Virus record (IMG/VR): IMGVR_UViG_3300031787_000010
Coordinates: 9,429 to 73,428 of that record
Source: a virus
Taxonomy: Duplodnaviria > Heunggongvirae > Uroviricota > Caudoviricetes
Direction: 5' to 3' (one strand)
Length of the DNA: 64,000 bases
Shown: piece by piece, positions 5,409 to 50,593 of the stretch
Layout: each line of letters starts with the position of its first letter
How positions within the stretch are numbered: the stretch's first letter is position 1
Translations under genes and position numbers: made by a program
Notes under the pieces: generated by a model
Seen by the model: the letters and a program-made list of their open reading frames with translations, nothing else
Databases searched by the model: none
What the model was told of the DNA's origin: nothing

Positions 5409-8400
5409 TTATTGTACTTGCAACGTTCCACCACCACCGGTTTGAATCTCTGTGTTTGTTTGTGTCGGTGATACGACAAGTTCGTTTCCTTCACCAATAA
5501 ATACTTGTACCGGCGGTAAACCATCAATTGTTGTATCTACGGTATTTTTACATCCTTCATAGTTTCTACGTTTAGTTGCTGTAGATGTGTCTCTGTAGAA
5601 CCGATAATGTTTTGGTAGATATCCAAATGGAATTCTTGGTTCAATTTCAAGTGCGAAATAAAATGCATATATTGTTGTACCAAGTTTATCTGTTCCTGTT
5701 AGATTGTTAATTGTGTAGTATATTGTGGCATTTGGTGGGAACTCTCCAGCAACAACAAGAGGTATTGGATTTGTTAATGTCAACTGACTAACGTTCGGTA
5801 ATACTGTATCAAGTAGTACACCGTGTGACCCTGTTGGAAGTGTTGTAATTGAACGATTAATATCATTAGTCCGTGCTTCGTCTGTACTATAGAATCGTAC
5901 TCTTATGTCCGATGTGTTAGATTGAAGTGCAAATAAAACTAATGTATTTTGAAGAACCGCTTCACCTATTGCGTAAGATCCAGAACCAATACTTGCTACT
6001 CTAATAGTATCAACATAACGATCTGGAATGTCTACTATTCTGTCTACAGAAACCGTTGTTGTTCTGTAGTTATTTAATTCCGGCTGCGATACTGTAAATA
6101 TATCGTATACAATTTTTCTAGGTTCTCGTACTTCGGTTGGCTTAAACTTTAATAACTGCCAATTATTTCTATCCAACGATGGTGGCAAATAACTTGGAGT
6201 TCCACCTAAATAATAGGAAGTTCCATCAGAAGGAGCGGCATACGCAGCTCTTGTGTTAAATACATAGTATCTACCATTACCACCTTGTGCGGTTGATGCC
6301 ACACTCTCTAAATTTTGATCATATAATGATACGTCTTGATATACTACATCATAAATATTGTATGTTTGCCCGTAAGACCAAGTAGTTGCTGCTTCAAAAT
6401 TAATTGGTTTAGGATATACTGGTAGTTTTTCTGTCTTAGCAAAGAGATATACACCTTCTGGGTTATTGAAATATGTTCTGGTACCAACATCTGTCAAATC
6501 CGCTATTGGTTTGATTTCACGCAATGCAGGGATATACAGACTTGTTACTCCACCAGTTCTATTAATTTCAATTTCTTGTTTAAATAATTTTCTTGTGTAT
6601 ACTCTTCTATAAGGCTCAGCTCCCTCACTACCATAATTAATATCGTTGTACTTGATTTTATTTCCTATATCATTTTCTAAATTAATTATAGTTTGTGGTT
6701 TTGGACGATTCCACGCATATCCCGGCGAACCCTTATAGGAACCAGTAACGTCCGAGTCAACTTCATTCATCAGTCTGTATGTGGCTGATTCTCCAATAAA
6801 TCTAAAATCATCATATCTGTTTATTACTGAGCTGGTGTAATAGTTTACCGTAGCATAAGGTATTTGTTGAACTATACTATTAGTCACATATCCTTTAATA
6901 GTATTGTTTGCGTTAGATTCAATTGTAAGTGGTTGTTCTAAACTACCGCTAATTTTTTGTAAATCTGCTGAAGTCTCTGCTACAAGGTTTGGTAACGTAG
7001 TTTTTAAACTACTAGTAACGGTTGTTAGTGCTGTAGACTGTAGTACTTGTATCGGCGTTGACGGTACCGTTGCTAATAATTTTCCGTTTTGAGAAGCAAT
7101 GGAAGATTCTATACTAATATCCGATGACTTACTAATTGCTGATTGATATGAATTGTATTGTGCTGTTAATCTATTTTCCGCTGATTGCGACAATGATGTT
7201 CTGTAATCTGCGTATTTTGCATTAACTTCTGTTTCTTGTAAAAATTCAATTTCTGTTTTAAAGTTACTTGGTTTACCGGACATCGACAACAAATCGTTAC
7301 TGATATCAATATCTGTTTTATATGATGTTGACGAACCGAGTACCGTTCTTTCTTGTTCTAAATCAATTTGTTGGCTAAGATTAAATGTTGCCGCATAGTC
7401 AGGTTTACTTCCAGTTAATGACGATGCAGCGTTTAATGTTTTTCTTGTACCAGCACCGTAAACACGAAGATTTTTTGTCAACGGAATTGTTGTTCTTTCT
7501 AGAATATTTGGTTCTATTAGTATGCCCTTAAATAATGTAGCTTTTGATGGAATAAAATAATTCAAAGTTTGATCGAGTACAGAACTGATACCGGAGAGAA
7601 TTCTTATAAATTTATTTATGTTTATTGGGGCATAGTAGAACTGGCTATAATACTCTTGTAAAGTGGAAATTGTTGGATTTCCTGTTCTATAAAAATCAAC
7701 TGGCAATCCTAATATATTATTAATATTTTCTGCGCCAAGATTTCTTATGATATTTTGATTGACGAAATCTGTTGGTGATAACGCAAGTAGTATCTCGTTT
7801 CGTGTAGCTTGTAGTCGTTTTTTCTCAACACTAACAATACTAGTTGATCGTGATAATTTTTTCACACCACCAGTTGTTAAGTTTTCTGCATTGAATACTG
7901 GTTCTGGTGCTATTCTAATTTTATTTGTGACATAAGTTTGTGATCCGACAGTCGGCGCAATCTGTCGAACTATTCTACTGTATCTGTTAAACGATCCTGT
8001 ATTAATGTTATATGTTTCAAATTGCTCAATAGACGGTGAATCGGTAAGTTGTGCATATGGACTTTCATTTATTATATAATTTGGCGCAGAACCAGTTAAT
8101 AGAGAGTTGTCAATTCTATTAAACGATAACTGTGCATATAAGTAATCAGATGGATCGGAATACTCATCTCCAGCGTTAGAACCAGGATCATATGCATTTG
8201 TTTCTATTGTGCCCTGTGATAATGTTTTACCCCACATTCTAAACTCATCTACCGTTCCGTCCATTCGAGCTTGTACTGCTGATCCAGATCCACCCAAATA
8301 CAAATATTGAGTATTATTCCAAACAGAATTCAATGGTGCAGTAGATGTTATTTGTGGAGATTTAAATATCATCGTATCACCTTCAGTTGACATTAACTGT

Positions 8401-38290: not shown

Positions 38291-38362
38291 GCCGCGTTCG
38301 TCTATCGGTTAGGACATAGCCCTTTCAAGGCTAGAAGGCGGGTTCGATTCCCGCACGCGGTA
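38291..38362 (+). tRNA. trnE: tRNA-Glu(UUC)
   Basis: Cloverleaf, loop CTTTCAA. Confidence 0.93.
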
Positions 38363-38386
38363 CTTGGTGCACCGAAGCGCAGTCGA

Positions 38387-38608
38387 GGTGATGAAATGAA
38401 AGAACGTGCAAAATCTTTCAGCCAAAAGTTCCCGTCAGCTTCAATGGTTGTCTGACGTTAAACAATGAATCATTCCGTTTCCACGACACGGGATACGCTG
38501 TGGGGTTGGTTAGTGCTTTCTTACCAAACAAGAAACGCAAAGGTTAAGGGGAGCGGGTCTAGACCGCGCGACATCCTTGGGTAACTGGAAACTACCTCAA
38601 TTGTCACC
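38387..38608 (+). ncRNA. unassigned structured RNA
   Basis: Closing GGTGAT/GTCACC, TGAAAGA/TCTTTCA, CGTCAG/CTGACG, TTTCTT/AAGAAA stems. Confidence 0.4.
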
Positions 38609-38615
38609 CCTCTGA

Positions 38616-38686
38616 TGCCCACTCGTATAATGGCAATACAGTTGACTTTGGATCAACGAATCGTGGTTCGATTCCATGGTGGGCAA
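38616..38686 (+). tRNA. trnQ: tRNA-Gln(UUG)
   Basis: Cloverleaf, loop CTTTGGA, U1-A72. Confidence 0.93.
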
Positions 38687-38690
38687 TAAC

Positions 38691-45003: not shown

Positions 45004-45078
45004 CGGAGAGTAGCTCAGTCCGGTTAGAGCACTCGCTTTGGGAGCGAGGGGTCGCAGGTTCGAATCCTGTTTCTCCGA
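45004..45078 (+). tRNA. trnP: tRNA-Pro(UGG)
   Basis: Loop TTTGGGA, C1-G72 A73. Confidence 0.93.
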
Positions 45079-45084
45079 CTTAAA

Positions 45085-45197
45085 ATATGTACGTAGACTA
45101 ATAACCGCCCACCAGTGCGGTGCACAAGAAAGGTATTGACTGCAGCCTATACCAATCATCTGGTACAGAAACACTAGTCACGTTTCTGCGTACATAT
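45085..45197 (+). ncRNA. unassigned structured RNA
   Basis: ATATGTACG/CGTACATAT closing stem, three internal hairpins. Confidence 0.5.
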
Positions 45198-45274
45198 TAT
45201 ATGTTAGTTGTCAGCCACGGAATCTGGTGGTTAAACCGTGGAAGTAAAAGACCGCGCGGTTCGACTAACATATA
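45198..45274 (+). ncRNA. unassigned structured RNA
   Basis: 13-bp closing stem TATATGTTAGTTG/CGACTAACATATA, CCACGG/CCGTGG. Confidence 0.5.
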
Positions 45275-45332
45275 CATATGACGTTTGGTAGAGTTCGTCA
45301 CTGGCACCTTCGGGTGATAATAACTACCACTT

Positions 45333-45406
45333 GGACAATTAGCTCAGCTGGTTAGAGCATCGCTTTTACACAGCGAGGGTCGGCGGTTCGAATCCGTCAT
45401 TGTCCA
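45333..45406 (+). tRNA. trnV: tRNA-Val(UAC)
   Basis: Loop TTTACAC. Confidence 0.93.
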
Positions 45407-45464
45407 TTCCAGCTAGTGATATCAGTGGTCTGCTGGAAACCACAACGTTGCTGATATCACACAC

Positions 45465-45546
45465 GCTCTTGTGGTGGAATGGTATACACGGCAGTCTCAA
45501 AAACTGCTTCCCATTGGGATTGTGAGTTCGAGTCTCACCGGGAGCA
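45465..45546 (+). tRNA. trnL: tRNA-Leu(CAA)
   Basis: Loop CTCAAAA, long variable arm. Confidence 0.92.
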
Positions 45547-45633
45547 TAAGGATATAGGGCGGTGTAGGTGCTAGCAGTCGCCTGTTAAATGTTCACAATA
45601 CTATGTCCTTACTACTTTTAGTGTAAAGATTAT

Positions 45634-46380
45634 ATGAAATATGCATTACTCATCTCTGGTCAACCGCGAAATGTTAAAGAAGCATACGAAGGTATCTATA
45701 CAAAAGTTATAGAACCTAACGGCATAAAAGACATTTTTATTCATTCGTGGATTGATCCTGATATGGTCGGTAAGCAGTATGTAGCACAGTGGCGTAGAAA
45801 GTTATTAAAGCAACAACAAAATGAAGAAGCAGAGGAACGATCTGTTGCCAGTAAAGTAGTTCCATCAAATATAGATTCTACTATTTTAGAATTATATAAT
45901 CCAAAAGTATGGAAGTTTGAAAAGCCAAAAACATTTTCATACGATACTTCTGTAGAAGAATATCTATCAGATGTAATGTATCCACAAGATATGTTAAGTT
46001 GGATGTACTCTATGTGGCAAGCAAATCTTCTTAAAACCGAATACGAAAATTTTCATAAGATAAAATATGATATGGTACTTCGTATACGGTTTGATTTCTT
46101 ACCAGCCGAACCGTTAGACCTAAAAAAGTTTACAGAGATCGACACAATATACGCATCAGATCGTTATCCATCTGAAATTGGAATGAACGATATATGGTGC
46201 GCTTGCAATAGTAATTTGATGGATATCTATACTAGTATGTTTTTAAATTTTGAAAACATATTATCTGACGCAGGTGATGTTAGATTCAATCACGAAATGA
46301 TGCTTAAACGTTGGATTGAAGTGATTAATAAAATTAAAGTAGAACGCATAGATTTCGACTTTGGAACTATGTTGATTTAA
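45634..46380 (+). CDS. putative glycosyltransferase-like protein (ALxISGQPR family)
   Basis: ALLISGQPR, IFIHSW, YDMVLRIRFD, NDIW, HE..L. Confidence 0.55.
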   Translation: MKYALLISGQPRNVKEAYEGIYTKVIEPNGIKDIFIHSWIDPDMVGKQYVAQWRRKLLKQQQNEEAEERSVASKVVPSNIDSTILELYNPKVWKFEKPKTFSYDTSVEEYLSDVMYPQDMLSWMYSMWQANLLKTEYENFHKIKYDMVLRIRFDFLPAEPLDLKKFTEIDTIYASDRYPSEIGMNDIWCACNSNLMDIYTSMFLNFENILSDAGDVRFNHEMMLKRWIEVINKIKVERIDFDFGTMLI

Positions 46381-46385
46381 ATCTA

Positions 46386-46470
46386 GGACAGGTGGCCGAG
46401 TGGTTTAAGGCAGCAGTCTTGAAAACTGCCGAACTGAAAGGTTCCGTGAGTTCGAATCTCACCCTGTCCG
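46386..46470 (+). tRNA. trnS: tRNA-Ser(UGA)
   Basis: Loop CTTGAAA, long variable arm, G73. Confidence 0.93.
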
Positions 46471-48795: not shown

Positions 48796-48803
48796 TAGAA
48801 GTT

Positions 48804-48890
48804 GGAAGTGTGGCCGAGTGGTTTAAGGCAGCTGTCTACTAAACAGCCGTGGGATAATACCTACCGTGAGTTCGAATCTCACCGCTTCCG
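48804..48890 (+). tRNA. trnS: tRNA-Ser(ACU)
   Basis: Ser body (long arm, G73); loop CTACTAA. Confidence 0.85.
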
Positions 48891-48914
48891 TACTCATACT
48901 TAAGGAATACACAT

Positions 48915-49580
48915 ATGATTATGTTACTTGGAGATATTCACGGTGAAACGATGGCACTGCGAGATGCCGTTGATAAAGCCGTAAAGACAAACGCAACGGC
49001 AATTATCCAGCTGGGCGACTTTGGTATGTTTTCGTATAACGAGAAATCGTTTTATGTCATTGCCGAACAGTCACCCATTCCTATCTATTTCATCGATGGT
49101 AATCACGATGACTGTATCCGATGGAATCAGTATAGTGATATTACCCGTCTGTGGGATGGACTTGATATGTTCTATATTCCCCGTGGGTGTGTGTTCGAAT
49201 TGGATGGTAGAACGTTTGCTGCGATGGGTGGAGCAGCATCAATTGATAAGAATACACGACTGATGTATAATTGGCATTGGGACGAATACGAAAATATTAG
49301 TCCAGAGGAAACTCTTCGCCTTCGAGAGAATATGGAAGGTAAGCAGATTGATATTCTGCTTACACATTGTCCGCCGAATAGTGTGATTGAAAAACATTTT
49401 GATCCACGCCAAAAACTAATGTTTGGTGTGGGGTTGGATTGGCATGACCATAACCAAGATGTCATCCAACACATCTGGGATTCACTAGATAACATTCCAA
49501 TTTATTCTGGTCACATGCACCGTTCAATTATTGCACCTAACTATCGTATTGTGGATATTAATGAAACTGTAATGGTATAG
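48915..49580 (+). CDS. calcineurin-like metallophosphoesterase
   Basis: LGDIHG, QLGDFG, DGNHD, LTHCPP, SGHMH. Confidence 0.9.
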   Translation: MIMLLGDIHGETMALRDAVDKAVKTNATAIIQLGDFGMFSYNEKSFYVIAEQSPIPIYFIDGNHDDCIRWNQYSDITRLWDGLDMFYIPRGCVFELDGRTFAAMGGAASIDKNTRLMYNWHWDEYENISPEETLRLRENMEGKQIDILLTHCPPNSVIEKHFDPRQKLMFGVGLDWHDHNQDVIQHIWDSLDNIPIYSGHMHRSIIAPNYRIVDINETVMV

Positions 49581-49582
49581 TT

Positions 49583-50593
49583 ATGGAACTTGACATAGTG
49601 TATCAAGCAACAAACCACCCAGCATGGAGTCCCCATTATGTCTATGAACAATCTTTTGCGATGCTTAAAACAAAGTATCCAGAAGTACGGTTCAGCCATA
49701 TCAATCCAGAACAATTTAACGGATTGGGATTTCCATCGCCGGGTGCGTTTGTTGTAATAAATCCAAAAAATAACAAACGAATAATTTTATCTTATCTAGA
49801 TAATTCTCGATATGTTTTATTGAAGGATGAATCTGTTGGCTGGCAACCTTATACAGTACAGCAATTATTTTGTTTGTCGGATATTGTTCCAATGAAAGAT
49901 GCTGCACGACAATATAAAATAAAGAAAGATGAAACGTTGTTGCCATATGTCGGAACAAATGACAGTGTTGCACTAGATCTAGATTTGGAAAGAATTATAA
50001 AACCGTTCAATCAAGTAGTATTTAGAACCGAGTACGATTTAAAAATTTCCGATAAGTTATATGAAACTAAACTATCCGCTAAAGACAGAAAACAATCATT
50101 GGTGTTTCGTGGTGCAATGCATTACTCACGCCCGTTTGTGGCGGAACACACCAATCACCCAGAAATTAGTTTCTTCAAAGACCACGTTCCAGATTATTAC
50201 GGTGAACTAGCATCACTTCGATGTGGGTTGTCATTGAACGGAGTAGCAGAAATTTGTAATCGTGACTTGGAACTTATGGCAATTGGAATTCCTATCATTC
50301 GTCCGTTATTTAAAAATGTGCAGTTTCACGAACCATTAATTCCGAATGTACATTACATTCCGTATGATTATGATCGGGAATATTATTATGTAGAAGCAAC
50401 CGATTACCCATACAACCGTGACTATAAACTGCACAGCCAGGCGTTGATTGAAAAGTGGGAAGAAGTAAAAAATAATTATGAGTTATTAGAGTTTGTTGGA
50501 AAAAATGCACGTGAATGGTATTTACGAACAGGAAAGCTTGATAGGCAAGTTGAATTGTTCGTTAATACGTTTGATATAAATTTATTAACTTAA
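49583..50593 (+). CDS. glycosyltransferase-like protein (GT-B / CgeB-like C-terminus)
   Basis: LSLNG...CNRDLE.MAIG.P...PL.PNVHYI...I..NAREWY. Confidence 0.55.
   Translation: MELDIVYQATNHPAWSPHYVYEQSFAMLKTKYPEVRFSHINPEQFNGLGFPSPGAFVVINPKNNKRIILSYLDNSRYVLLKDESVGWQPYTVQQLFCLSDIVPMKDAARQYKIKKDETLLPYVGTNDSVALDLDLERIIKPFNQVVFRTEYDLKISDKLYETKLSAKDRKQSLVFRGAMHYSRPFVAEHTNHPEISFFKDHVPDYYGELASLRCGLSLNGVAEICNRDLELMAIGIPIIRPLFKNVQFHEPLIPNVHYIPYDYDREYYYVEATDYPYNRDYKLHSQALIEKWEEVKNNYELLEFVGKNAREWYLRTGKLDRQVELFVNTFDINLLT

Follow-up and report, generated by a model that had tools for sequence, protein, structure and literature searches.

The standard bacterial tRNA with adenosine at position 34 (A34) is tRNA-Arg(ACG), which is read as inosine (I34) through the deaminase TadA. 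A natural bacterial tRNA working with unmodified A34 is tRNA-Thr(AGU) of Mycoplasma capricolum, and in some four-codon boxes (Mycoplasma, mitochondria) an unmodified A34 reads beyond U. The TadA enzymes of S. aureus and E. coli recognise U33-A34-C35-G36, with G36 strictly preferred (PMC10586758). In the split box shared by serine and arginine, A34 was described in a 2021 review as “universally missing”, with the tRNA genes that bacteria lack being absent from phages too (PMC8007984), and in an E. coli lysate an engineered ACU anticodon outperformed GCU on AGU (PMC6158751).

The locus described here carries a tRNA-Ser with precisely this ACU anticodon. It lies in a stretch of 64,000 nucleotides (hereafter “the window”) taken from a 166,598-base IMG/VR virus record of an uncultivated phage (39.5% GC, estimated 89% complete), whose genes for a baseplate wedge and a DsbA-like protein point to a T4-like phage.

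The serine tRNA gene and its surroundings

The features of the window on which the analysis centers are the following:

38291..46470, + strand: main tRNA cluster, 28 tRNA genes
44447..44521, + strand: tRNA-Arg(UCU), the cognate AGA reader, which has the AGN box in common with Ser(ACU) (ARAGORN)
46386..46470, + strand: tRNA-Ser(UGA), the sole other serine tRNA, with the same D and T arms as the ACU gene and 78% identical to it
48804..48890, + strand: tRNA-Ser(ACU) gene, class II, G73, no encoded CCA (ARAGORN, Rfam RF00005, cloverleaf drawing)
48838..48840, + strand: its anticodon A34-C35-U36, ACT in the DNA (sequence and ARAGORN anticodon position)
48915-49580, + strand: calcineurin-like metallophosphoesterase, 221 aa, directly downstream of tRNA-Ser(ACU)

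For ARAGORN, 48803-48891 (+) is a tRNA-Ser(act); its anticodon begins at base 36 of the gene, so that A34 falls on window position 48838. The Rfam tRNA model (RF00005) aligns in full to 48804-48890 (model positions 1-71 of 71, 56.2 bits, E 1e-9). Read directly from the sequence, the gene has a 7-bp acceptor stem (GGAAGUG/CGCUUCC), a 3-bp D stem as typical for bacterial tRNA-Ser, an anticodon stem GCUGU/ACAGC with the loop C-U-A-C-U-A-A (48836-48842), a long variable arm of 5 bp, and a standard T arm (GUGAG/CUCAC). The discriminator is G73 (U73 in some members of the Ser(ACU) family), and CCA is not encoded. The full-model cloverleaf, long variable arm, 3-bp D stem and G73 are those of a bacterial-type class II tRNA-Ser, but the gene is not filed under the canonical AGY isoacceptor tRNA-Ser(GCU) because the defining G34 is replaced by an A at 48838. 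An original prediction, made by a model from the letters alone, had described an intact Ser body with this ACU loop and no Ser(GCU) in the window. Every detail of that description is correct, and the absence of Ser(GCU) extends to the whole 166,598-base record, in which ARAGORN finds 31 tRNAs and one tmRNA, with UGA and ACU as the only serine anticodons. All remaining two-codon NNY boxes of the phage are served by G34 tRNAs.

The ACU gene is located 2.3 kb downstream of the main tRNA cluster and shares its strand; small ORFs precede it, and the metallophosphoesterase gene follows. No promoter-like site was found directly upstream of it, and no terminator-like site; the tRNA would be transcribed together with the neighboring + strand genes. 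A functional link between the tRNA and the metallophosphoesterase was considered and rejected, as eight of nine homologous loci have no nearby tRNA (the exception being L007, a relative described below). The 336-aa ORF beyond the metallophosphoesterase (the pair spans 48915-50593, +) has no Pfam or PHROG match. A megablast search of the 6 kb around the tRNA gene against GenBank phages returned tRNA-sized matches only, and no close relative.

The window has further RNA genes of note. The tRNA-Cys(GCA) at 43018-43102 (+), 85 nt long, is unusual in being class-II-like: its variable arm is long, its 3-bp D stem resembles that of tRNA-Ser, and its discriminator is U73. This long form is common to relatives of the phage (L013 11014-11096, 83 nt; L022 2269-2352, 84 nt). 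A tRNA-Ile(UAU), whose anticodon is uncommon in bacteria, is encoded at 40115-40189 (+) and recurs in the related contigs L007, L013 and L019, and in several Patescibacteria loci Ile(UAU) adjoins Ser(ACU). The phage tmRNA (28814-29154, -; Rfam 143 bits) has the tag peptide GNYNLALAA.

Conservation and recurrence of the ACU anticodon

ACU and GCU are one base apart, and a single-base assembly error had accordingly been named in the original prediction as the trivial alternative, with GCU in all relatives as the pattern that would count against the gene. To look at this position in other assemblies, we scanned with the exact anticodon arm of the window, leaving position 34 free. All 10 matches in IMG/VR (the window's own record excluded) have A34, and each is a Ser(act) for ARAGORN. 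The same holds for A34 in 32 of 32 matches from JGI metagenome contigs, a few of which are shared with the IMG/VR set. Together these matches represent about 20 distinct tRNA sequences, in which the acceptor, T and variable stems vary by compensatory changes. A longer arm pattern had no match in IMG/VR outside the window's own record; the matches came from the shorter pattern.

Relatives of the phage give a similar picture. L013/L019 and L022, with 48-96% amino-acid identity to the window's phage over shared genes, carry ACU, and L006/L007 are more distant relatives (55-78% protein identity). The 163,934-base record behind L006 (G001, 90% complete) also carries Ser(ACU), with acceptor and T arms as in the window but an anticodon stem and a variable arm that differ. 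In both G001 and L022, Arg(UCU) directly adjoins Ser(ACU). Overall, ACU was retained in four lineage members while proteins diverged to 48-96% identity. GCU is thus not the rule among the relatives: only the more distant L007 has a Ser(GCU) (5842-5931), with an acceptor stem different from that of the window gene, at a syntenic site directly upstream of the metallophosphoesterase gene.

Since A34 occurs in all same-arm matches, and ACU in diverged relatives, we reject the assembly error. A dead gene, i.e., a decaying Ser(GCU) copy, is opposed by the maintenance of all four stems and of the variable arm through compensatory changes, and the presence of ACU in finished genomes of cultured phages (see below) argues against either form of artefact, to which we give hardly any credence. 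The tRNA gene is real and conserved.

To evaluate how frequent the anticodon is, we used a looser pattern that combines a Ser-type D arm with Y-U-A-C-U-A-A. In IMG/VR it matched at least 117 stretches, and from the 120 loci listed ARAGORN obtained 118 Ser(act) genes (66 distinct sequences, with 29 different complementary anticodon stems). When either purine was accepted at position 34, the 120 IMG/VR matches listed comprised 23 ACU and 97 GCU genes. Among the matches listed, ACU therefore makes up roughly one-fifth of the phage Ser(RCU) genes with such a D arm. The same looser pattern retrieved only 98 stretches (89 of them ARAGORN Ser(act)) from 185,579 species-representative cellular genomes. 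The anticodon had been called very rare, which is accurate for cellular genomes but does not extend to phages.

Two cultured phages are among the carriers, Salmonella phage Munch (MK268344.1, 266654-266744) and Erwinia phage Hallingskeid (PQ464590.1, 114576-114663), and in both the deposited annotation reads merely “tRNA-Ser”. The commonest ACU type, 93 nt long, had no megablast match among GenBank phages. The best BLAST candidates proved to have other anticodons: cyanophage S-CBWM1 carries GCU, and the matches in Acinetobacter phage MD-2021a, Burkholderia FLC9, S-CAM3, Ralstonia YO105_4, RN05-S and Xoo-sp13 are UGA. Xanthomonas phage Xoo-sp13 has in addition an unannotated, putative 96-nt “tRNA-Tyr(ata)” (ARAGORN; L335 2673-2768), i.e., another A34 in a split box.

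Among the cellular matches, many are from Patescibacteria, and others from Polynucleobacter isolates, planctomycete MAGs and short contigs with phage-like tRNA arrays. At 40 loci, a Ser(GCU) gene is found near the ACU gene (at a median distance of 260 nt), and the identity between the two is only ~62%, which indicates old paralogues rather than recent copies. The Ser(ACU) genes of the Polynucleobacter isolates (L137, L138, L185, L211, L212, L223 and L229) are almost identical to each other and encode CCA, with up to four of them in a single genome. The acceptor stem is damaged in some, and several have Thr(CGU) and Gly(CCC) as neighbors; such copies may be integration-site remnants or mobile-element cargo.

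The fold itself appears to be under selection. An RNAalifold alignment of 41 diverse ACU genes, including those of the window, Munch and Hallingskeid, gives a cloverleaf with a long variable arm, in which 20 of 25 pairs show compensatory changes and the variable arm covaries. With position 34 masked, the nearest neighbor of an ACU gene was again an ACU gene for 125 of 127 unique sequences. The 15 nearest to the window gene are all ACU (80-92% identical, vs. 73% for the best GCU), and the window gene belongs to this family by its Ser body, its Y-U-A-C-U-A-A loop and its clustering. On a FastTree phylogeny, the anticodon state needs 17 changes, compared to 79-90 in five of 200 label shuffles run. 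Judged from these comparisons, ACU is an inherited isoacceptor lineage, possibly with several origins or switches (sequences of 87 nt are too short for a tree to count such events reliably).

Codon usage and the state of position 34

Codons were counted in 184 non-overlapping ORFs (48,066 codons). The comparison of AGU and AGC that the original prediction had called for shows an AGU bias (784 vs. 165, i.e., 83% U), the strongest U bias among NNY pairs, the remaining six two-codon NNY boxes reaching 67% U when pooled. The AGU share is 86% in the structural block and 81% elsewhere. AGU is also the commonest serine codon of the phage, followed by UCA (778) and UCU (739), and the two phage serine tRNAs, ACU and UGA, pair directly with the top serine codons AGU and UCA.

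We propose that the gene probably encodes a functional phage tRNA-Ser isoacceptor, in which A34 is not deaminated and reads AGU by Watson-Crick pairing. Host enzymes would mature the transcript, including the addition of the CCA that the gene does not encode, and the host seryl-tRNA synthetase (SerRS) would charge it. Charging with serine is expected because the body is of Ser type and SerRS ignores the anticodon. A34 would then remain adenosine and pair with the U of AGU in Watson-Crick geometry, so that the tRNA would supply the commonest phage serine codon, with AGC left to the host tRNA-Ser(GCU) and AGA to tRNA-Arg(UCU), one copy of which is phage-encoded. A plain A34 might also read AGC, or leak onto AGA or AGG. 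An unmodified-A34 reader for AGU had been one of the suggestions of the original prediction, and it is the best-supported mechanism, with A34 likely not inosine; both the decoding and the modification state are what we infer from the gene and its family.

Alternatively, A34 could be deaminated to inosine by a host or unrecognised enzyme, in which case an ICU anticodon would read AGU and AGC, and weakly AGA, and would replace Ser(GCU). Coverage of both AGY codons would fit the lack of GCU in the phage and in nearly all ACU-carrying viral loci (only ~2 of the 118 listed have both), the loop differs from that of Arg(ACG) mainly at position 36, and a relaxed deaminase in the phage's host, whichever organism that may be, is conceivable. 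However, position 36 is also where canonical TadA strictly needs a G (PMC10586758), and the U36 of phage Ser(ACU) makes inosine unlikely. A phage-encoded TadA was rejected, as the only CDA-fold protein of the contig is of the dCMP-deaminase type (phrog_174 at 6.9e-36; ComEB rather than TadA model), and the phage carries an Arg(UCG) rather than an Arg(ACG). The phage has 635 AGA codons, and ACU-carrying contigs among the IMG/VR loci listed do not avoid AGA (13.2 vs. 12.9 per 1000 codons), which likewise speaks against an inosine that would read this codon.

A cellular carrier points in the same direction. The complete Parcubacteria genome RAAC4_OD1_1 (a single contig of 693,530 bases) carries adjacent Ser(GCU) and Ser(ACU) genes, and its arginine tRNAs are GCG, UCG, CCU and UCU, with no ACG. 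Its sole deaminase match is ComEB-like (112.7 bits, vs. 26 bits for the TadA model), and its codons include 3,076 AGU, 596 AGC and 3,925 AGA. An I34 reader is hard to reconcile with this heavy AGA use and the separate GCU gene, and we consider deamination in the phage tRNA unlikely. RAAC4_OD1_1, which is not the phage's own host, would fit a division of labor with ACU for AGU and GCU for AGC. Besides Ser(ACU), this genome encodes Pro(AGG), likewise an A34 tRNA, and ARAGORN reports in addition a “tRNA-Stop(tta)” (the two lie at 100567-100641 and 349784-349856).

Returning to the proposed AGU reader, we asked if codon supply could account for the choice of A34 over G34. Among the IMG/VR loci listed, the pooled AGU share is 0.62 for ACU carriers (n = 93) and 0.58 for GCU carriers (n = 71), with mixed signs within GC bins. 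The two groups being alike at equal GC, we rejected as a general rule the idea that ACU follows AGU bias, and codon supply alone fails to explain why A34 replaces G34. ACU carriers do cluster at 35-50% GC, with 1 of 93 above 55% GC vs. 18 of 71 GCU carriers (loci listed). When only arrays of 5-9 tRNAs are considered, Ile(UAU) is found in 11 of 48 ACU carriers and in 0 of 21 GCU carriers, and Arg(UCU) in 16 of 48 and 4 of 21, respectively, an enrichment in line with a set of tRNAs that together read codons ending in A or U.

Codon bias that does not separate ACU from GCU carriers, together with the viral enrichment of ACU (23 of the 120 Ser(RCU) genes among the matches listed, vs. the 98 cellular matches), leaves room for another selective force. 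One such force could be counter-defence: the change from G34 to A34 would hide the phage AGY reader from a host anticodon nuclease, or let AGY decoding outlast the depletion or turnover of the host tRNA-Ser(GCU). If true, this would explain why about one-fifth of the phage Ser(RCU) genes listed have an anticodon that cells almost never use. The contig, however, has neither a T4-type RNA ligase nor a CCA-adding enzyme: searches found no CCA-adding enzyme and no Rnl1 (a weak negative for the latter, as the Rnl1 model matched no control genome), and for Rnl2 one 14-bit sub-threshold match only. Phage escape is also no explanation for the stable chromosomal Ser(ACU) of Patescibacteria, adjacent to a Ser(GCU) from which it is long diverged, and we know of no nuclease targeting tRNA-Ser(GCU) in a likely host. 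Escape from host nucleases, the other selective reason originally put forward, thus finds no support here, and we regard it as quite improbable.

Comparison with known systems

No publication that names a natural tRNA-Ser(ACU) from phages or CPR bacteria came up in our literature search (in which subscription journals were thinly covered), and Ser(ACU) is apparently an undescribed isoacceptor family, widespread in viruses and CPR. Its conservation in phages, including cultured Salmonella and Erwinia phages, and in Patescibacteria contrasts with the view that A34 is “universally missing” from this box (PMC8007984). The family offers a natural and tractable system for why split boxes avoid A34, and asks whether a ribosome with a plain A34 can tell AGU from AGC, AGA and AGG. 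It also matters for annotation, where such genes are deposited without their anticodon, and bears on models predicting phage hosts or fitness from tRNA and codon matching.

The closest described kind of tRNA is tRNA-Ser(GCU), as in L007 and in cyanophage S-CBWM1 (L328 3006-3094), which has in common with the window gene a class II body, a 3-bp D stem, a long variable arm and U36-A37-A38. It differs by G34 in place of A34, and is ~73-79% identical; no GCU gene sampled comes as near to the window gene as ACU genes from unrelated phages do. The Ser(ACU) genes of Munch and Hallingskeid have the same C-U-A-C-U-A-A loop and class II Ser architecture, but are ~74% identical, differ in the D arm, encode CCA and belong to enterobacterial jumbo phages of ~350 kb. 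The Patescibacteria Ser(ACU) (RAAC4_OD1_1, 458219-458306) resembles the window gene in anticodon, body type and an AGU-rich genome, yet it is cellular and adjoins a Ser(GCU), which the phage itself lacks.

Beyond serine, M. capricolum tRNA-Thr(AGU) has the plain A34 that we propose for Ser(ACU), but serves a four-codon box where loose wobble is harmless, whereas the Ser/Arg box needs discrimination. Finally, tRNA-Arg(ACG) also has A34 in a C/U-U-A-C-N loop, but its G36 is the TadA determinant (PMC10586758) and its box has four codons, whereas Ser(ACU) has U36 and belongs to a split box, in which inosine would lead to mistranslation of AGA.
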